Below are positions 4,708 to 58,470 of a stretch of 64,000 nucleotides of DNA, one piece after another (the stretch's first letter is position 1; each line of letters starts with the position of its first letter). The stretch comes from Candidatus Magasanikiibacteriota bacterium (GTDB lineage: Bacteria > Patescibacteriota > Patescibacteriia > Magasanikbacterales > UBA922): the NCBI GenBank assembly GCA_014729395.1, contig WJJZ01000001.1, positions 3,634 to 67,633 of the forward strand, given 5' to 3'. A model generated the notes under the pieces. It saw only the letters and a program-made list of their open reading frames with translations. It made no database searches and was not told where the DNA came from. Both the position numbers and the translations under genes were made by a program.

Positions 4708-7700
4708 ATAGTATTGGGGGTATCATTTAAAACATCACAAAAACCGGTTTGAATTTGCTGAACAGGACTAATTCTCCAATCAAATTCCAAATTTTCCGAT
4801 TTCCATTCAAGATTGAATACATGCCAGTATCTTGCCGTTGGGTTGGATGATGACTGTGCACTCTTTATTGAAAAACTAGTAATCGGTTTGTAAACGGAGT
4901 GAGCTGGTACTTGTCCTTCGTGAAAAGTGTAAATATCCACAGTTAAATTGCTGTTTGTAAAATTGCTGATTGGTACCTCTCCCAAACTACCAATAGCTTC
5001 AACAAAAAACGCAATAGGTGGTCTCACTTCAAAAGTCCTGTTCAGATAATACCAACCATTGGTATCGATAGTCATGGCTTGAATAAACGTCTTGTCCAAA
5101 CTTTGAACCGGGTGTACAAAAAGCAATCTTGATTGATCACGTGTAAAATCATCACTTGGTCTGATAACTGTATATGGATTACATGCTGTTGGCCAGAAAT
5201 ATCTACCATGATTAAATTCTGTAGAATTATATTCAGCTTCTTCCTTATATGTAGTTTGCTCCATCTGATCGCAATACCATGGATCGGCGGGATTGGTGGT
5301 ATCGGAAATCGCTTCACTTAGATTCTTTATAAGAGCCTTTCTTTCTTCCAGATCTTCGGCGTTTTTGTCAAAAATCTGACTATACAAAACACCGTTAAAA
5401 ATTACATTACGATCATCTTCTTTATCTGTCCAACGCACAACCACCCTGAATACATTGTCAGGAACTGCCGGAGAAACGATATATTCGTGTTCAATCGGCC
5501 CTGTTTGTCCGCTAACCGGATAGCTGAAAAGGTCGCCGTAGTTTAATAATTGATCGCGATTATAGATATTTAGATTTACTGCGGGAGATTTTTTAATCTC
5601 AAGCGGTGAAAAATATAATTTATACTCATCAACACACAAAGCGTCGCTCTCAAGCCTAACCTTTTCACCGGATAAATTTTCACTACTACCTGAATTCCTA
5701 AGTGCTTCTTGAATTGTGTAGTCAAAATATATTGGAGTGCTGCCATTGCCGGTTGATCCCAATCTGCGCCAGCCAAAAGTATACCCGTCTTCAATACCAT
5801 CTCTGTCCGGGTCATACCAACGATACATCAAAACATGTTGGAGTCCGTCAAAATTTCTTTCCGGAAAAGCCCACCAATTTGTTCCTTCACCAAGAGTACT
5901 TTGCGGAACGCCACCACCTGTAATCGGATTTAGAAAGGCCATATTGGCAATGGTATTTATATTTTGATCCAAGCTGGCTGTACACTCAACGCAATTATTA
6001 TCCAATTTCTGACAACTTTCGCTACAGCTCACACTCCCCAAATCAGTACAGGTTAAGACATTGTTCTCATTACACAATGTATAGTTTGGTAAACATTCAC
6101 CATAAAATTGGACATCGTTTGTTATGTAATTCGATATATTATTACTATAATCCTCCTCTTTTAAGTCCAAGATCAAACCATCATCAGGAGCAAGGCAAGT
6201 TGTTTGGTCATTTGGGTCACAGATAATACTCGGATCCTCTGAACAGTGATAACCCAACATGTCTTCTAAATCCGCTTCTGAAGATAAATGGACAAGTGAC
6301 AGAACAAGCAGTTTGCAAGCAATCACTTTTGGATCGTCAAGATCTTCATCCAGCCAACTACAGATCGCATTCATATTATCTTCCGAATTTTCGAGCATTT
6401 CAGGATAGTACTGAACCCTAACCTTTCCATCGTTTAGTCTTCTGACAAAACTCGGGGCTACAGTCTGTGAACATACTTCGTCAGACACGATAATGTTTTC
6501 CCCAACAGTTTCACATTTTTCTCCATTTTCAGCTTGAACAATACCATCACCACAATAAGCGGTCGGTTCTCTAAACAATACATTTCTACAATCAGCCGAA
6601 CAATATGTACAATTTTGTCCATATTCAGGCTGACACGGAATACCATTCTGTGAGCCCAGATCACAAGCTTCCATTACCCCTTCGTTGTTTGGAGCCTGAA
6701 CCACATTATCACCACATGCACCGATATTTTCCGCTTCCACCCCTTGTTGAACAGGTCCTTCATATACACCCTCGCATTCTACCCTGTAACCATTGGAATT
6801 GGTAATATTTAGCTCAACACTGCATGAGTTATTACAATCATACCCACTACCATAACACCTGGTATAATAAACCAAAATATTAAATTCATCCAATTTACCG
6901 TATCGCTCCAAAACCTGATCACATGAAAGTCCATAACTGTGACAAATTTGATTACCGGTAATATTGCTTGTACATTCCGGGATAGCTTGACCCTCATAGT
7001 CCCCACTGGAACTGTCAAACACGTCGTAATTTCCTCTACTTATGTAAATATCGGTTGAATTATCTGCTGTAGAAGTTGTTAGATAAGGGCCTGCATTGTA
7101 ACAAGAATTATTCTCTCTTTCGCACTGCTCACTACAACCATCAAAATTATCTAGGTTGCCATCGTCACAGGTTTCATAATCAGGCTGGACTAAATTGTCT
7201 CCACAGTATCCACCATAACCTTGACAATCAATTGAGCAAGATTTTTCCATTTCAAAAGCATATTGCCCCCAAAGAGGTCTCATAGACCAATCACAAAACT
7301 CATATTCTTCTTGAAAAACTGTATCTCCGCAATAACCAAGTCCGGACAAAGCATTACAATCTTCACCACAATGACCATAAGAACCGTTTAATTCCCCATC
7401 ATCACACAACTCTCCTTGATCAACCACTCCGTTGCCGCAAATACCAACACCGGGGCATTCTGTTGGTTGCCAAGTGCACTGATCCGTACATATTCGACAA
7501 TTAGCCGCATCAACACGTCCGGGTGGATCACAGCTCTCACCTGCATTGACCACAGAATCACCGCACACCCCTCCTTCGGGAGTATGAGTTTGATTTGGCA
7601 CACAATATGGCTCTGTATCAAATCTACCCCTATTGATACCATATCTGTCTATTATAGAGTTATTTAAGCTTAAAAATTCAAGCGGGGCATGGAAAATATA

Positions 7701-26642: not shown

Positions 26643-26807
26643 ATGTCCCGAACATGTGAAAAATGCGGAAAAGGACCAAAAAAAGCTGTTACAAGAAGTC
26701 ATTCAAAAATTAGAACTCTTAGAACACAAAAAGCTAATTTGCAAAAAATTAACGGAAAAAAACTCTGTACCGCTTGCATAAGAACAATGGTCAAAAAAAC
26801 CGCTTAA
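26643..26807 (+). CDS. rpmB: 50S ribosomal protein L28
   Basis: 54-aa ORF MSRTCEKCGKGPKKAVTRSHSKIRTLRTQKANLQKINGKKLCTACIRTMVKKTA with L28 Cys-pair zinc-ribbon pattern. Below the ORF-track size cut-off. Confidence 0.8.
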   Translation: MSRTCEKCGKGPKKAVTRSHSKIRTLRTQKANLQKINGKKLCTACIRTMVKKTA

Positions 26808-27011: not shown

Positions 27012-27088
27012 CGGGGTGTAGCTCAGTTGGCTAGAGCGCGCGCATGGGGTGCGTGAGGTCGCTGGTTCAAGTCCAGTCATCCCGACCA
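27012..27088 (+). tRNA. tRNA-Pro (anticodon GGG), CCA encoded
   Basis: CGGGGTG-TA-GCTC-AGTTGGCTAG-AGC-G-CGCGC-ATGGGGT-GCGTG-AGGTC-GCTGG-TTCAAGT-CCAGT-CATCCCG-A-CCA. Confidence 0.85.
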
Positions 27089-27089
27089 G

Positions 27090-27166
27090 CGGGATATGGC
27101 CTAATTGGCTAGGGCGCACGCTTCGGGTGCGTGAGGTTCCGGGTTCAAGTCCCGGTATCCCGACCA
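27090..27166 (+). tRNA. tRNA-Pro (anticodon CGG), CCA encoded
   Basis: CGGGATA-TG-GCCT-AATTGGCTA-GGGC-G-CACGC-TTCGGGT-GCGTG-AGGTT-CCGGG-TTCAAGT-CCCGG-TATCCCG-A-CCA. Starts 1 nt after the CCA of the preceding tRNA. Confidence 0.85.
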
Positions 27167-27367: not shown

Positions 27368-27396
27368 AAAAATACAAAAGCCCCTATAAAGGGGTT
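27368..27396 (+). terminator. rho-independent terminator downstream of the tRNA-Pro pair
   Basis: AAAAGCCCCT-ATAA-AGGGGTTTTTG. Confidence 0.55.
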
Positions 27397-27618
27397 TTTG
27401 TGTAACCTACATAAAAACGACATGATCGCCATCCCTAATGTACTAGGTGGGTAACCGCAATCTTAGCCCACGAGCCAAGATGATATAAGTTTCCCTATGA
27501 GACGATTTCGACGAATGAGATTATGCCGTTTTTTTGCTGTAGGTGATTTTATTATATATTTATAAAATCCTTGTGTCAAATCTTAAAAAAATTAATTGTT
27601 GTTAAGCTGTGAATTATT

Positions 27619-27657
27619 TAAAAAAAGCAGGCATGTAGAAAACACACCTGCTGGTTT
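27619..27657 (-). terminator. terminator after the ATP-grasp gene
   Basis: AAAAAAAGCAGG-loop-CCTGCTGGTTTTT. A-run and T-run flank the hairpin immediately past the gene stop at 27664. Confidence 0.45.
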
Positions 27658-27663
27658 TTACTA

Positions 27664-28941
27664 TCACACCAGACGAAGTTCCGCCTGATGAAACAGATCT
27701 ACGGCCTGATCAAATGTTGGGGCAATGGCAATCAAGCCGGCTTTACCAAGACCCAGTGAAATGAGCGGGGTGTGATACATGAGCACACCCGAAGTGGAAT
27801 TACCATGATAAAACAGATCATCCAGCAGGGCACGTGCCTCGCTGTAGTCTTTGATCGACTTTCTTACCGAGACATTAGCCATTGCGACTACCACACCGGA
27901 GTCAAAATTTTCGACCACTGACCGGTGAACACCGGCCGTGTACATAGAATTCGACGTCCGTGCGTTGCATTCCAACAGAAAAATGTCATCATACTCTGTT
28001 AGAAGCAAGTCTAGACCAATCTTACCACGATAACCTGAATTCTGTACTACGGACATAAGCGGCATTGTCAACTCAACCGCCCTTTTCACAATCAACCATG
28101 ATAACGGACCCAAGTCACTACCGAAAGAGCCGACAATATTACCGCGGTGAGGAATACCACGTTTTAAGTCTTCCATCTGAACCAATTCCCCCATCGGCAC
28201 ACCATCCAAGACTTGTAGAGAGAAGCAATGCAAATGAATATCCATATCACTGATTTCAAAAACCAAAGAAAATGGATAGTGCTCATAAGCCTCTTCTACA
28301 ATCAATCGACTCGAATTTAACTCAGAGAGATCTCTATTTGATAAATCCTCTCCGGGGCCCAAAAAAACCATACCTTCTGATGAAGCCGCATCCGGAACTT
28401 TTACCACGAAACCGTGCGCATTACAGCGTTTACGAAGAGCAGTTCCCAATTCACCGTTTCCCGAATTCACGACCCGATGCTCCGGAAACAAATGAGACAA
28501 ACCCTTGCTAGAGGAGACCTTTCGCAAGTAATCTTTTCTACCCCAAATGTCGGCTATTTCCCTCCGCGGTGTGCAGGTGGTATCCCAGTCGAGCTCGGCG
28601 TCTCGAATAAAATTTTCAGCAGCCGGAGAAGCGCAAAAAAGATCTATCTTCGAGCCCTTGGAAACCACTCCCCTTACCATTCTCAAACTTTTAGAATCAG
28701 ACAAGACCCCGCCGTAAAGACCGGTGCCATTTACCGGCACTTCCACAACTTTAACTTTGGAACTTTTTACACCTGCTTCTTCATAATCACGCAGAAGCAG
28801 GGAAAGTTCCTCGTCACCGGAAGGCACCACTACTGTTCTACCGCCCAACAAGAGAGCGCGATAGCAGTACCTCTCTATGCCATCCACACGCTGTAGGTGC
28901 GGAAAGTCACCCGCAACATCGTGTATCGTCACGTTTCCCAT
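27664..28941 (-). CDS. ATP-grasp fold ligase (carboxylate-amine/peptide ligase type), elevated GC
   Basis: VVKVPDAASSEGMVFL (ATP-grasp P-loop-like) and IGLDLLLTEYDDIFLLECNAR (E-x-N-x-R catalytic motif). GGAGG Shine-Dalgarno 5 nt before the ATG. GC is visibly higher than the flanks. Confidence 0.6.
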   Translation of the reverse strand: MGNVTIHDVAGDFPHLQRVDGIERYCYRALLLGGRTVVVPSGDEELSLLLRDYEEAGVKSSKVKVVEVPVNGTGLYGGVLSDSKSLRMVRGVVSKGSKIDLFCASPAAENFIRDAELDWDTTCTPRREIADIWGRKDYLRKVSSSKGLSHLFPEHRVVNSGNGELGTALRKRCNAHGFVVKVPDAASSEGMVFLGPGEDLSNRDLSELNSSRLIVEEAYEHYPFSLVFEISDMDIHLHCFSLQVLDGVPMGELVQMEDLKRGIPHRGNIVGSFGSDLGPLSWLIVKRAVELTMPLMSVVQNSGYRGKIGLDLLLTEYDDIFLLECNARTSNSMYTAGVHRSVVENFDSGVVVAMANVSVRKSIKDYSEARALLDDLFYHGNSTSGVLMYHTPLISLGLGKAGLIAIAPTFDQAVDLFHQAELRLV

Positions 28942-29041
28942 GATATCCTCCGTGATTTTTTCCTTAGTAACAAAGGACTGGTCATATTACCAATATAATC
29001 AATCCATTATTAATAATATTTGAATGAACTAAATTAAAAAA

Positions 29042-29824
29042 CTACGAAATTTGAATAGCTTTTTTCTGTTTAATTTTTTCTTTCTGTAATTGTTGCTCAC
29101 TAACATAATCTACAAATAGATGAAGAACTTTTGCCGCTTCAGGGGTGTCTTTAAAGTCTTCAAGCAGTTCTTCCATAGTTGTACCTTTGGGTACATAATT
29201 GGGAAATAATTTCAGTCTGGCTCTCATTCTTTCTTGATTTAATTCGGGATGAAACATCAAACCCCAGGCGGGTTTATTTTTTAATCGAAAAGCCTGACAC
29301 GATACTTTTTTCGTTTTTGCCAACTGTAGCAAATGCGAAGGTAAATTAATTGGAGTGGTTTTATGACCAAATTGTGCTAAAAAAGTCGACTTTAACCGAC
29401 TGAAAATCGGATCTTTTTCCGAGTCAGGCAGCAATTCAACTTGAAACGTTCCAACTTCTTGAAATTTTTCATCAGTACTAAGATCAGCGCCTTGATGAAA
29501 TGATAATAAATGCCCACCATAACAAACACCCATTAATGGAATATTTTTTTCAAGTATAGAATCAATAAAACGAAGAGTATTTCTTATCCATTCATTATTT
29601 TTTACCTCTTCGGTACTCAAATAAAATTGTCCACTGCCACCCATTATAACACCGGCTACATCTTCCGGAATAAATTCGGGCAGCTCGCCTTTCGCTGCGT
29701 TTACATAAAACAGATCATATCCACAAGCTTTTAATTCTTCATTATAACAATCCTGCTCTTGGGGCTCGGATGCGTCTGTGCGAAACTGCACAATATAAAT
29801 CTTCTTTAAAATTTCATCGGGCAT
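29042..29824 (-). CDS. class I glutamine amidotransferase domain protein (GuaA-like GATase1)
   Basis: MGVCYGGHLL catalytic Cys motif and LMFHPE His-Glu motif. Confidence 0.7.
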   Translation of the reverse strand: MPDEILKKIYIVQFRTDASEPQEQDCYNEELKACGYDLFYVNAAKGELPEFIPEDVAGVIMGGSGQFYLSTEEVKNNEWIRNTLRFIDSILEKNIPLMGVCYGGHLLSFHQGADLSTDEKFQEVGTFQVELLPDSEKDPIFSRLKSTFLAQFGHKTTPINLPSHLLQLAKTKKVSCQAFRLKNKPAWGLMFHPELNQERMRARLKLFPNYVPKGTTMEELLEDFKDTPEAAKVLHLFVDYVSEQQLQKEKIKQKKAIQIS

Positions 29825-30047
29825 AATTTTTCTATTATTGATTAAAATTAATTTAATTTTAAACCGCCTATTCTTTAGGCGGCAGTGTTTCCAAGTATTT
29901 TTTGTTTTTTCTAAATACGCAAATCACTGCCCCCGGGAACTAGGAGTATAATATAAATAAATACAATCCATTGTGGCATGTGATTTTGCATATTAAAATT
30001 ATTATACTAATTTCTTGATTCACTTTCAATACTTGATTGTGGATATA

Positions 30048-30151: not shown

Positions 30152-30364
30152 TTAACCAGGCCGGACTGTATTATTCTGCATGGAATAATCCAACCCGACG
30201 ATCACTCGATCCCAACTGTCCAATTGGGCCTCGAGTACTCTAGCCTCCTTTGTGTCCTCTCTTTCCCAGGCACTCAAAAGTGCCTCTTCAACCCTCCTCA
30301 TTTCCTCACCTACTTCTTTTAGCTGTTGGGCATAAAAGTGATAGGCTTTTCCATATTTAGTCAT
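30152..30364 (-). CDS. small hypothetical protein (70 aa), elevated GC, own promoter and strong SD
   Basis: MTKYGKAYHFYAQQLKEVGEEMRRVEEALLSAWEREDTKEARVLEAQLDSWDRVIVGLDYSMQNNTVRPG. AAGGAGG 6 nt upstream of the ATG. An overlapping plus-strand ORF (30056..30322) cannot be excluded. Confidence 0.35.
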   Translation of the reverse strand: MTKYGKAYHFYAQQLKEVGEEMRRVEEALLSAWEREDTKEARVLEAQLDSWDRVIVGLDYSMQNNTVRPG

Positions 30365-30500
30365 GTTGCACCTCCTTGTTTTTTCGAACGATTATCCGTT
30401 CGTGAAAACCCTCCCGGCTTTCACGAAAAGATAATTCGCCTCAAATTAAAACCATCCTGGTCTTCTCAGGATGGTTTACTTATAATTTTTTTATGCTCTT

Positions 30501-30529
30501 TATATATACGCATACTTTGCTTTTGTCAA
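30501..30529 (-). promoter_or_regulatory. near-consensus sigma70 promoter (TTGACA-N17-TATATA) for the small high-GC ORF
   Basis: The minus-strand reading is TTGACAAAAGCAAAGTATGCGTATATATA. Confidence 0.45.
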
Positions 30530-30653
30530 GTAAACCATCCTCGATGCCGGAATTAGGTTAATCACAATATTCATCACAAAATATGCCTTCCAGCTGAGGT
30601 TGCCTGCATAAAAGCGAATTGTATGAGTAAAATTATTCATAATTTTTTCTTCA

Positions 30654-30674
30654 TGTTTTAGTGTAGTAAAACAC
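30654..30674. repeat. 21-bp palindromic direct repeat, right copy (GTTTTAGTGTAGTAAAACACT)
   Basis: See 30048-30068. The two copies flank ~600 bp of higher-GC DNA. Confidence 0.6.
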
Positions 30675-30739
30675 TAACAGATTGTCAACAGATTTATCCA
30701 CAACTACACAGTAACAAAACAACCTAACGCCTTCAATAA

Positions 30740-31423: not shown

Positions 31424-31912
31424 CTACTTGCGACGGAGAACCCGATCGTAGACGCCCCAGACGTCGTCGAGCCAGTACCAGTCCCGAACCCACTCCTCGA
31501 CGTTGTTCCAGTAAACGCGACCGGCGTGCTCGGGATGGTCGGGAAGACGCCAGTCCTGGATCACGAAGACGAACTTGCGGAACTCGGACGGGATGTCCTG
31601 CCGGTTTTTGAACAGGTACCGGCCTTCGTCCTCTCCGCAAGGGTGTCCAGTCATCGCGTCCGTTCGCTTGATCATCGTGTGACCGACGACCGAGATCTCG
31701 CCGTCCCGCAGGAAGGCGTGTACCTCGTACGAACGGTTCTCGGGACCGATGTTCTCCATCGTGAGGATGTCAGGCTTGCCACTCTTGAGAGCGGCACGCA
31801 GAACGGTCGCCAGCCGTCCCTGATCCTCGATAAAGGTTTGTTTCTCGCTGGTTGTAAGATCGTCAGGCAGTTGCCTGATGACCGATGCGACGAACTCTCT
31901 GTCCTGATTCAT
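31424..31912 (-). CDS. hypothetical protein encoded by a ~60% GC segment (probable horizontal acquisition)
   Basis: Continuous ORF. Start assigned to the internal Met (MNQDREFVAS...) because AAGGAG lies 7 nt upstream. The ORF track extends it to 31981 into low-GC DNA. No confident family assignment. Confidence 0.5.
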   Translation of the reverse strand: MNQDREFVASVIRQLPDDLTTSEKQTFIEDQGRLATVLRAALKSGKPDILTMENIGPENRSYEVHAFLRDGEISVVGHTMIKRTDAMTGHPCGEDEGRYLFKNRQDIPSEFRKFVFVIQDWRLPDHPEHAGRVYWNNVEEWVRDWYWLDDVWGVYDRVLRRK

Positions 31913-32178
31913 TTTCTTTCTCCTTGGGCTTACCCCTTTGGGCTTACCCTGCTTTGGTCGAGAGAAATCCCCAACCTTCATTTGAATAACAATATTTTGT
32001 TAGTCAAAAGAAAGCAAGGAAAATCTATAACTAAAGAACAAATTTAACGCTTAATTATGGCATAAAAGTGCTAATTTGTCAAGCTACTTTATAATAATCA
32101 AAAATAAAAAATAGCTAAATTTAGCCATTTTTAATAACCAATCAGAATAAAATCCTGCGAACTGATCACTGTGAACTG

Positions 32179-57670: not shown

Positions 57671-58264
57671 CTAATGAAACAAAGGCCAGCGAACCTGAGT
57701 TACACAAGGACCTTCCAAATTATGTTCCAAGCGACAAGAATTATCGCCACATTGATCAAAACAGCTTGCTTCATAACAAAGCGGAACTCTAACAGTATGC
57801 GGCAAATCGACATAAGAAAGGGTTACAAAGCCGAGCACGTTCGCGATATGAACAACCTTTGGGTTTTTTGTGGTATGAACCAGCACACCCGTAGGGTGTA
57901 ATACCGAAATCGCTCTATAAATCTCAAAACCCAATTTCCTATCCCGATATTCCGGTGGCACAAAAACCGAGCCTAGCTCCCACCACTGTAAACCGTCGTT
58001 TTGACCGGATTCATAAGTGGTGGCAAAACCACATGGATTTTGATTATGACCCAAAAGCAAAGCACAGAGTCCCAACCGAAGTTGATTGAAGACCCGTTCT
58101 TGTTCTTGAATCAAGAGCGGCTCCCCTCTTTCAACCGCTTCTCTTGTCCAATTTGAAATCAAATTAGACAAATACTCCAAACGGTTTTGCAGCACAGGCT
58201 CGTTACCCCTGTATGCGCTAACTTGAAACGGAACACACGAAACCATGTTTGCGCTGATCATCAT
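57671..58264 (-). CDS. GNAT family acetyltransferase with Cys-rich C-terminal tail, elevated GC
   Basis: VFVPPEYRDRKLGFEIYRAI is GNAT motif A. AAAGGAGG precedes the start. GC is noticeably above the flanks. Confidence 0.5.
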   Translation of the reverse strand: MMISANMVSCVPFQVSAYRGNEPVLQNRLEYLSNLISNWTREAVERGEPLLIQEQERVFNQLRLGLCALLLGHNQNPCGFATTYESGQNDGLQWWELGSVFVPPEYRDRKLGFEIYRAISVLHPTGVLVHTTKNPKVVHIANVLGFVTLSYVDLPHTVRVPLCYEASCFDQCGDNSCRLEHNLEGPCVTQVRWPLFH

Positions 58265-58470
58265 ACCTCCTTTTTCAGCTAAATTTTGGTCTCATCTAAA
58301 AAAATCTTAAATCAGACCAAAATTAAAAAATCCCGCCTCTGCGGGACGATTTTATTTTTAAAAACAAAAACTATCCCGCGGGCAGGATCTTCTTCTTTGT
58401 GTCTTTTAAACTTAAAATCAAATTCATATAAAATAATTTTAGCAAAACCAAAACGCTTTGTAAAGTTTAA

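Follow-up and report, generated by a model that had tools for sequence, protein, structure and literature searches.

We examined a 64,000-nt stretch of DNA from a Candidatus Magasanikiibacteriota bacterium (assembly GCA_014729395.1, contig WJJZ01000001.1; hereafter the window, with position 1 as its first nucleotide), in which a gene for a class I glutamine amidotransferase (GATase) adjoins a gene for an ATP-grasp carboxylate-amine ligase. With moderate confidence, we read this pair as an amide ligase and amidohydrolase operon that is controlled by a leader-peptide transcription attenuator, would be induced by Ile/Leu starvation, and is conserved in its lineage and not a recent import. What is new is the attenuator upstream of the ligase operon, which a preliminary description of this DNA had missed; the ligase fold and the type of attenuator are of kinds already known.

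A probable leader-peptide attenuator upstream of the GATase gene

A sigma-70-type promoter, a short leader open reading frame (ORF) and a terminator hairpin precede the GATase gene (Table 1). Only 9 nt separate the end of the -10 box from the leader ATG, which would make the 5' untranslated region (UTR) of the leader very short or absent; an equal 9-nt spacing was found in three related loci (L006, L007 and L009). The leader peptide carries a hydrophobic run in which 9 out of 10 residues are Ile, Leu, Val or Phe, a value reached by 0.6% of the 355 small ATG-initiated ORFs of the window. The last codons of the leader hold an antiterminator strand (region 2), whose duplex with the 5' side of the terminator had a predicted energy of -21.1 kcal/mol, against -8.0 ± 2.5 for shuffled sequences (z = -5.3). 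The terminator 5' flank (29893..29884) is shared with this pairing, and when the naked RNA of the window was folded, region 2 paired with the 5' end of the leader ORF while the terminator stood. The alternative pairings of region 2 together with the terminator therefore correspond to the classical 1:2, 2:3 and 3:4 scheme. Known RNA families, T-boxes and riboswitches among them, were not found by Rfam in the region or in the related loci.

The Ile codons 9, 12, 14 and 15 of the leader sit 4-10 codons ahead of region 2, which starts at codon 19, so that region 2 would stay open with a ribosome stalled at the earlier Ile codons and would be covered by one that has reached the stop. When Ile/Leu-tRNA is ample, the ribosome would reach the leader stop and cover region 2, the terminator would form and transcription would stop. 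When Ile/Leu-tRNA is scarce, the ribosome would stall in the codon run and leave region 2 free to sequester the terminator arm, and RNA polymerase would read into the GATase and ligase genes. The element upstream of the GATase gene thus probably acts as a transcription attenuator that should open on Ile/Leu-tRNA shortage; both the sign of the regulation and the sensed amino acid (Ile/Leu) are what we infer from the sequence.

The preliminary description had located the two ORFs correctly and had seen that they adjoin, but it had the GATase gene following the ATP-grasp gene. The order is the reverse: both lie on the minus strand, with the GATase gene transcribed first and the 425-aa ligase ORF second. 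Within the 100 nt that separate them, the minus strand shows neither a promoter-like nor a terminator-like site, and because the genes are adjacent with no such site between them, they are probably co-transcribed. Canonical Shine-Dalgarno (SD) sites had been ascribed to both genes; the GGAGG of the ATP-grasp gene is indeed present, whereas the GATase gene has no SD (aatagaaaaattATG). As part of the same reading, and with the same confidence, the minus-strand region would form one transcription unit consisting of promoter, leader ORF, attenuator terminator, GATase, ligase and terminator. The 425-aa product is identical to GF349_00145, a hypothetical protein of a Candidatus Magasanikbacteria metagenome-assembled genome (MAG).

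Table 1. Features of the GATase-ligase operon and further candidate attenuators in the window (AF2, AlphaFold2).
Feature	Position	Strand	Details
Sigma-70-type promoter	30029..30001	-	TTGAAA-17 nt-TATAAT; 11/12 consensus matches
Leader ORF, 26 codons, MQNHMPQWIVFIYIILLVPGGSDLRI	29991..29911	-	codons 9-18 are an Ile/Leu/Val/Phe/Tyr run
Antiterminator strand (region 2), CGGGGGCAGUGAUUUGCG	29935..29918	-	within the last 8 leader codons; pairs with 29893..29877
Attenuator terminator	29893..29863	-	stem GCCGCCU/AGGCGGU at 29883..29863; hairpin of 8 pairs
GATase-fold ORF, 260 aa	29824..29042	-	ORF list and family match
SD (GGAGG) of the ATP-grasp gene	28951..28947	-	5 nt before the ATG at 28941
ATP-grasp carboxylate-amine ligase ORF, 425 aa, PGM1/BesA/LdmS structural type	28941..27664	-	profile and AF2 model
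Operon-ending intrinsic terminator	27652..27626	-	11-pair stem, then TTTTTTT; strong
Second candidate attenuator, before the 70-aa ORF	30688..30449	-	blind scan; promoter 30688..30660
Third candidate attenuator, before ORF 58264..57671	58427..58371	-	leader MNLILSLKDTKKKILPAG, terminator GUCCCGCagagGCGGGAU and U run

Conservation and covariation of the putative attenuator

We compared 12 loci, namely the window and 11 distinct further loci that hold homologues of the ligase gene (L001, L002, L005-L012 and L014). In 11/11 of the other loci the ligase gene is preceded by a promoter, a 15-31-codon ORF that includes a hydrophobic run (e.g. MKNSLKHIVVLALIILCNQGEYLLFQR) and a terminator, and a leader ORF with a terminator hairpin was found in 12/12, including the locus of a homologue only 23% identical. 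In all of them a mutually exclusive antiterminator reaches into the end of the leader ORF, with duplex energies between -14.9 and -28.7 kcal/mol (z from -2.8 to -9.4; p <= 0.012 in every locus when compared with shuffled sequences). The two strands co-vary: the terminator sequences differ by locus, and the leader ORF segment shifts along with each. When strands were paired across loci, cognate pairs had a mean of -20.6 kcal/mol and non-cognate pairs of -12.0 ± 3.4 (permutation p < 1e-5), and the cognate strand was the best of the 12 partners for 9 out of 12 terminators, including that of the window.

When 136 terminator-like sites of the window and the loci were scanned blind, 14 distinct sites emerged as candidates (16 ORF calls, as two sites had an alternative frame), and 11 of the 14 precede ATP-grasp genes. 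The pooled leaders are composed of 16% Ile, 14.4% Leu, 7% Phe and 5.8% Val, with only 1.9% Asp and 1.6% Glu; the ligase leader of L012 reads ...KQFFFFTLL.... In L009, tandem leader-terminator units (782-859 and 1070-1147; first leader MTYMHTCQTIITNIILRNWSGRLAS) lie ahead of one ligase gene. Long near-perfect hairpins were also observed between the attenuator terminator and the ligase start in L001 (9740-10000), L007 (5080-5400), L008 (2640-2800) and L009 (1250-1520), and none in the window.

The ATP-grasp ligase

Searches with the single 425-aa sequence gave little: ATP-grasp Pfam models stayed sub-threshold (E = 0.03-0.1, 12-14 bits against cut-offs of 23-31), the PDB returned zero matches and a word-indexed database 2 homologues only. 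Because the single sequence remained below threshold, the ATP-grasp identity was established by a profile and a structure model, which place the protein among the ATP-grasp carboxylate-amine ligases. Among 1.84 billion cluster representatives, a profile search recovered 221 relatives at E <= 1e-3; E <= 1e-30 was reached by 32, most of which have 400-500 aa. Residues K136, R140, D311, E324, N326 and R328 are invariant in an alignment of 48 homologues, and the central-domain Lys, K181, is invariant in 9 sequences; the E-x-N-x-R motif aligns with that of 8ynd and PGM1, and the window ligase retains the Mg/ATP residues D311, E324, N326, R328 and K181. PF02655 was matched by 15/48 homologues at E <= 0.01, while PreAtp-grasp (PF18604) and PGM1_C (PF18105) were each matched weakly by 1/48 and neither by the window protein.

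Against PDB sequences, the 48-sequence profile matched 8ynd (2e-21), PGM1 (2e-16) and BesA (3.5e-9), and its matches to PurD, the large subunit of carbamoyl-phosphate synthetase (CPS; 5e-8) and Ddl were confined to the ATP-grasp core. A first AF2 model built from 3 sequences only was unusable (predicted local distance difference test, pLDDT, 49); the model from 48 homologues reached a pLDDT of 95.7 and a predicted template modelling score (pTM) of 0.94, and it displays the three-domain ATP-grasp fold. Foldseek returned 684 PDB matches at E <= 0.001, and the best 50 of the 684 were all ATP-grasp enzymes, led by 8ynd, 8yi6 (BesA), 7r8p/7r8q (SAOUHSC_02373) and 3wvq (PGM1) with E = 1e-17 to 1e-22 and template modelling (TM) scores of ~0.62-0.72. 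By profile and fold, 8ynd, BesA, LdmS and PGM1 rank above PurK, PurT, PurD and Ddl. We rejected a housekeeping D-Ala-D-Ala ligase (Ddl) paralogue, which the preliminary description had considered for the N-terminal half, as Ddl covers only profile positions ~137-320 (E >= 2e-6) and the similarity is not full-length.

Judging from the model, the ligase would activate a carboxylate as an acyl phosphate (ATP -> ADP + Pi) and couple it to the amino group of an amino acid; the product would be of the alpha- or gamma-linked dipeptide type (amino-acid or gamma-glutamyl-amino-acid).

The GATase and its replacement by an M20 deacylase

The partner is a stand-alone class I GATase, as had been proposed (Pfam PF00117, E = 2.7e-11, 43.9 bits against a cut-off of 22.8; NCBIfam PRK09065, E = 2e-35), and its triad Cys101, His192 and Glu194 is invariant in 8 sequences (the window and 7 homologues from related loci). 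It resembles stand-alone GuaA-type GATases, and its closest solved structures are TM1158 and GuaA subunit A, not the CPS small subunit. Models of more specific hydrolases did not reach their cut-offs: PF07722 (Peptidase C26/gamma-glutamyl hydrolases) scored 16.7 bits against 20.5, and the gamma-glutamyl-CDP-amidate hydrolase model (E = 5.8e-8) stayed far below its own. With conserved Mg/ATP residues in the ligase and an intact triad in the GATase fold, the amide-ligation chemistry that had been suggested for the pair appears well founded at the level of sequence and model.

The relatives carry either a GATase or an M20 enzyme directly 3' of the ligase. In the window, L001, L008 and L011 the ligase shares its operon with a GATase, and in L002, L006, L009 and L010 with an M20 deacylase. 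Counted over whole loci, GATases of the same family occur in the window, L001 (3 copies), L007, L008 (2) and L011, ArgE/DapE-type M20 deacylases in L001, L002, L006, L009 and L010, and a distant YbdK-family carboxylate-amine ligase in L001, L006, L007, L008 and L010. This interchange of GATase and M20 enzyme makes a hydrolase role a better fit for the GATase than that of an obligatory ammonia donor. As a thiol amidohydrolase, the GATase-fold enzyme would cleave glutamine or a gamma-glutamyl amide, and a ligase/amidohydrolase pair would serve amino-acid homeostasis or salvage; we read the unit as such a pair because of this predicted chemistry and the replacement of the GATase by M20 in related loci.

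An alternative that we consider unlikely is a two-subunit amidoligase, in which ammonia from the GATase is passed to the acyl phosphate on the ATP-grasp subunit, as in CPS, and the product is an amide such as an amidated amino acid or dipeptide. CPS does combine the same two superfamilies, the GATase triad is intact, the two genes adjoin and probably share a transcript, GATase and ligase are paired in four loci, and CPS large-subunit cores match the profile. However, only the ATP-grasp core of CPS matches, and the GATase is of the GuaA/TM1158 type. In the four loci with an M20 deacylase in the ligase operon a GATase was not seen, and therefore the ligase is not generally in need of an ammonia donor. 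L001, moreover, has three GATase paralogues around one ligase, and a metagenome scan with the GATase alignment found such a ligase nearby in 0/80 loci with distant GATase homologues (<= 35% identity), a count that says nothing on close relatives.

Two further proteins were observed beside the ligase genes of relatives: a second, divergent ATP-grasp paralogue after the GATase in L011 (8464-9654; 396 aa, ~24% identical), and, between the ligase and M20 genes of L010 (2410-3699), an unrelated 429-aa protein with no family match.

Genomic neighbourhood and composition of the ligase gene

The gene order of the window is UvrD-x-NDK-x-GATase-ligase-(tRNA-Pro)-small ORF-M50-S12-S7, the two tRNA-Pro genes (GGG, CGG) lying on the opposite strand ~500 nt past the ligase 3' end. 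Relatives with 31-39% identical proteins, two of which bear the name Candidatus Magasanikbacteria, hold the ligase in the same UvrD/NDK ... M50/S12 neighbourhood. The slot is the same in L002, where the S12 gene adjoins the ligase-M20 pair, in L010 (ligase-x-M20-UvrD-x-NDK) and in L011, a Magasanikbacteria MAG with the order UvrD-NDK-x-ligase-GATase-ligase2 ... L28-M50-x-S12-S7, in which GATase and ligase are swapped relative to the window; M50 lies close by in L001 and L008. The small ORF of the window (26643..26807) occupies the L28 position of L011.

The GC content of the ligase gene is well above the local background, as first described: 0.475, and 0.465 at third codon positions (GC3), against 0.364 ± 0.036 and 0.297 ± 0.040 in 48 host-like ORFs of the window (z = 3.1 and 4.2). 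The description of the pair as atypical holds for this gene only; the GATase gene is host-like (GC 0.360, GC3 0.272; z = -0.1 and -0.6). The ligase gene is GC-richer than its neighbours in 12/12 loci, by up to 0.45 in GC3, with values of 0.72 versus 0.24-0.30 in L007, 0.82 versus ~0.44 in L001 and 0.37 versus 0.22-0.35 in L011. Over the 12 loci, ligase and YbdK-like genes have a GC3 of 0.36-0.88 and their neighbours of 0.22-0.57, the GATase and M20 genes being host-like. In the window ligase, TTA, AGA and CAA codons give way to CTG/CTC, CGN and CAG. The shift in protein composition is of the generic GC type (Ile, Lys and Asn down; Ala, Arg and Gly up); the Ile depletion of the ligase proteins is part of this general shift and does not point to avoidance of Ile in particular. 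Several unrelated ORFans in the 12 loci are likewise very GC-rich.

Since all loci show it, although the copies are only 23-45% identical, and since slot and attenuator are conserved, the GC excess is a long-lived trait of the family and, as judged from the sequences, not a trace of recent import into this genome. Together with the reading given at the outset, we hold the ligase unit to be probably old and specific to Magasanikbacteria-type bacteria of the candidate phyla radiation (CPR). Selection for codons whose tRNA isoacceptors keep their charge in starvation, GC-biased gene conversion and repeated exchange among CPR lineages are ideas for the origin of the excess.

The recent lateral acquisition put forward in the preliminary description is consequently quite unlikely. 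As a recently acquired foreign cassette, the ligase gene, alone or with the GATase gene and small high-GC ORFs, would have been inserted beside the tRNA-Pro genes; its high GC3, the closeness of these tRNA genes, two more high-GC ORFans close by, ligase homologues of no more than 39% identity despite 65% for the GATase, and the gene order swapped relative to L011 are all in line with this. Yet relatives hold the ligase family in the same slot, the same leader-attenuator occurs in 12/12 loci, and a GC excess present everywhere in such divergent copies is no mark of recency. Among the annotated ORFs of the region (M50, NDK, UvrD, GATase and ligase) there is no integrase-like one; repeats were not searched for. 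The combination expected of a genomic island, atypical composition and absence from the relatives' slot, was not found. The recurrence of the neighbourhood in relatives is a weaker form of the universality in the lineage that the preliminary description had named as evidence against acquisition.

The small high-GC ORF that had been placed downstream as part of a module does not belong to it. We rejected both high-GC ORFans as module parts, as they are upstream in transcription, form units of their own and lack homologues in all the related loci. The 70-aa ORF (30364..30152, minus strand) is GC-rich, has an AAGGAGG SD and gave no Pfam match above cut-off. The 185-aa ORF (31981..31424, minus strand; GC 0.577, GC3 0.737, z = 10.9) has UvrD on one side and NDK on the other, with a terminator-like hairpin after it, and had no Pfam, NCBIfam, PADLOC or PDB match; by sequence it is the best candidate of the window for truly foreign DNA.

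The tRNA genes near ligase loci have mostly G/C at the wobble position: Pro-GGG and Pro-CGG in the window (27012-27166), and Gly-CCC (twice), Pro-GGG and Leu-GAG elsewhere (L001 14316, L008 5430, L010 8974, L005 9632). The presence of these readers of GC-ending codons may be a simple synteny effect. L001/L004 (GCA_964344485.1, contig CAYFNF010000001.1) is labelled uncultured Gammaproteobacteria, yet it has the ligase module, the attenuator and the NDK/M50 surroundings in common with Magasanikbacteria MAGs, and this label may be incorrect.

Further attenuator candidates and the sensed signal

Leaders with aromatic runs precede the YbdK-like ligase genes of L006 (MNIIHNHSAFYFFYFASQRSGALCHAK, 6367-6510; run FYFFYF) and L001 (...SWYAFFFSFERQKVDV, 2592-2760; run YAFFFSF), with a terminator after each and an antiterminator complementarity seen by eye. 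The class of amino acid that these leaders would sense (aromatic) differs from that of the ATP-grasp leaders. In L007 (2234-2340), a leader ...NNYFFFFFYTF... and a terminator precede a GATase/YbdK-like gene pair, and here the antiterminator complementarity was scored (predicted free energy, dG, -14.1; z about -4). The second candidate of the window comprises a 46-codon leader ORF MNNFTHTIRFYAGNLSWKAYFVMNIVINLIPASRMVYLTKAKYAYI (30640..30500, minus strand), whose segment AGGAUGGUUUAC complements the 5' arm of the terminator AAACCAUCCUgagaagaccAGGAUGGUUU at 30477..30449 (dG -22.2, z = -7.2). The gene behind the third candidate encodes a 197-aa GNAT-family acetyltransferase with a GC3 of 0.41, the top value among host-like ORFs.

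These runs bear on what the leaders sense. It is very improbable, in our view, that they respond to a ribosome-targeting antibiotic or other translation stress, in the manner of erm or ABC-F genes, and that the operon serves in stress or resistance. In their hydrophobicity and their high content of Ile, Phe and Val the leaders do resemble some drug-sensing leader peptides, and the regulated genes are not biosynthetic. The leaders of neighbouring genes, however, carry different single-class runs (FYFFYF and YAFFFSF before YbdK-like genes, FFFFF before the L007 GATase, FFFF before the L012 ligase), a per-gene pattern that matches known amino-acid-specific attenuators. Because single-class runs differ by gene, amino-acid-specific sensing is favoured over drug sensing.

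Least probable of all is a system for peptides that are made on the ribosome and modified after translation (RiPPs), in which the small upstream ORF would be a precursor that a PGM1-like ligase extends N-terminally or that is cross-linked in graspetide style: PGM1, which is structurally among the nearest relatives, attaches an amino-acid derivative to ribosomal peptides, the small ORF immediately upstream is conserved and graspetide clusters are reported in CPR bacteria (PMC8939145), yet the small ORFs are alike in composition and not in sequence, the 3' part of each co-varies with the terminator arm at its own locus and is therefore constrained at the RNA level, and the gene lists of the loci showed neither protease nor exporter genes. 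The graspetide-like role of the preliminary description was not borne out either. Graspetide (microviridin-type) maturases belong to the same ATP-grasp superfamily, but none was among the best 60 of 83 profile matches or the best 50 of 684 fold matches, and no precursor rich in Thr, Ser, Asp and Glu lies near the ligase: the sole conserved small ORF is the Ile/Leu-rich leader, which lacks such a core and whose 3' half is dictated by RNA pairing.

Points against the proposed attenuated operon

Several points weigh against an attenuated, lineage-conserved ligase/amidohydrolase operon. The U-tract of the attenuator terminator in the window is weak (UUUAAAAUU, to 29855), and a generic terminator scan passed over the hairpin because of this weak T run; a relaxed blind scan recovered it. 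The leaders are predicted ORFs without SD whose translation is putative, and hydrophobic leader peptides are known also from antibiotic-sensing attenuators. Inducing a ligase that consumes amino acids during amino-acid scarcity is odd. The window ligase on its own lies below Pfam and NCBIfam cut-offs, and tblastn found no YbdK-like ligase or M20 gene in the 64-kb window. Finally, homologues of the window ligase are all <= 39% identical, whereas those of its GATase neighbour reach 65%, a gap that favours some exchange of the ligase gene for a copy derived from a different CPR lineage.

Comparison with known systems

PGM1 (3wvq) and the Streptomyces ATP-grasp peptide ligase 8ynd are the best profile and fold matches, extend over all three domains and share the acyl-phosphate chemistry. 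PGM1 extends ribosomal peptides, whereas the window has neither a natural-product cluster nor a peptide substrate gene; the identity is 13-16%, the Pfam PGM1 domains are not matched, and the window gene belongs to a CPR host and is under attenuator control. BesA (8yi6), the second-best fold match (E = 1.3e-21, TM 0.71; identity 18%), couples the gamma-carboxylate of Glu with a free amino acid to give gamma-L-glutamyl-L-propargylglycine (bioRxiv 10.1101/2025.10.10.681649). Such gamma-glutamyl chemistry would fit a partner of the gamma-glutamyl hydrolase type; no Bes pathway genes are present here, and use of a gamma-glutamyl donor is conjectural.

By analogy, the closest functional parallel appears to be the hmrA-ldmS operon of S. 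aureus, which likewise combines a related ATP-grasp ligase and an amide hydrolase. SAOUHSC_02373 (7r8p/7r8q) is LdmS, an L-Asp-L-Met ligase, and the hmrA (M20D)-ldmS operon is predicted to be on at amino-acid limitation via CodY, CymR or S-box sites (PMC9486568). LdmS shows the same induction paradox as the operon described here, and its physiological logic is unclear (PMC9486568). The two operons differ in that the hydrolase is of the GATase fold in the window and of the M20 ArgE/DapE type in its relatives, in the leader-peptide control and in the phylum.

In the ilv, leu, pheA and trp attenuators of Proteobacteria, the leader holds a run of codons for the sensed amino acid, and its 3' part pairs with the 5' arm of the terminator. 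The attenuator of the window differs from these in controlling a ligase/hydrolase operon and not a biosynthetic one, and in leaders with almost no 5' UTR and no SD. None of the papers searched joins leader peptide, attenuation and Patescibacteria.

Other features of the window

The window has a GC content of 37.6% and is dense in housekeeping genes (EF-G, S7, S12, M50 peptidase, NDK, UvrD-type helicase, 16S rRNA); other stretches resemble ribosomal-protein operons by appearance. Its GC peak near 52.6 kb is the 16S rRNA gene and irrelevant to the ligase question. PADLOC gave no defence-system match. Between the ligase gene and the tRNA-Pro genes (27579-27365, minus strand), a perfect sigma-70-type promoter (TTGACA-17-TATAAT, 27579..27551) is followed by ~140 nt of strongly structured RNA (minimum free energy -57.2 kcal/mol, z = -5.6) and a terminator at 27394..27381. 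No convincing ORF, no Rfam match and no conservation among the fetched loci were found for this element, a possible small RNA. Farther away (15533-4695, minus strand), one 3,612-aa ORF lies among apparent translation and transcription genes and is possibly a fused RNA polymerase beta/beta'.

Implications for CPR bacteria

Magasanikbacteria-type CPR bacteria lack most amino-acid biosynthesis. We raise, only tentatively and as rather unlikely to hold in full, a small regulon of amino-acid-specific attenuators, in which Ile/Leu runs would control the ATP-grasp ligase, Phe/Tyr runs the YbdK-like ligase, and others small ORFs and the GNAT gene. The ligases and the GATase-fold or M20 hydrolases would then form a gamma-glutamyl or dipeptide conjugation-and-release cycle that captures host amino acids, and the persistently GC-rich make-up of the two ligase genes, with codons that are rare in these AT-rich genomes, would reflect selection for codons of tRNA isoacceptors that keep their charge in starvation.

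A gene-specific GC excess can be a conserved trait of a family, which calls for caution in composition-based calls of lateral transfer. The attenuator points to an uncharacterised module in the starvation response, in which a PGM1/BesA/LdmS-like ligase is accompanied by a hydrolase of the GATase fold or the M20 type and often by a YbdK-like ligase. CPR/Patescibacteria are believed to rely on their hosts for amino acids, and their sensing of shortage and response to it are almost uncharted; if our reading is true, a conserved and co-varying attenuator would directly report the amino acids that are limiting in CPR bacteria.

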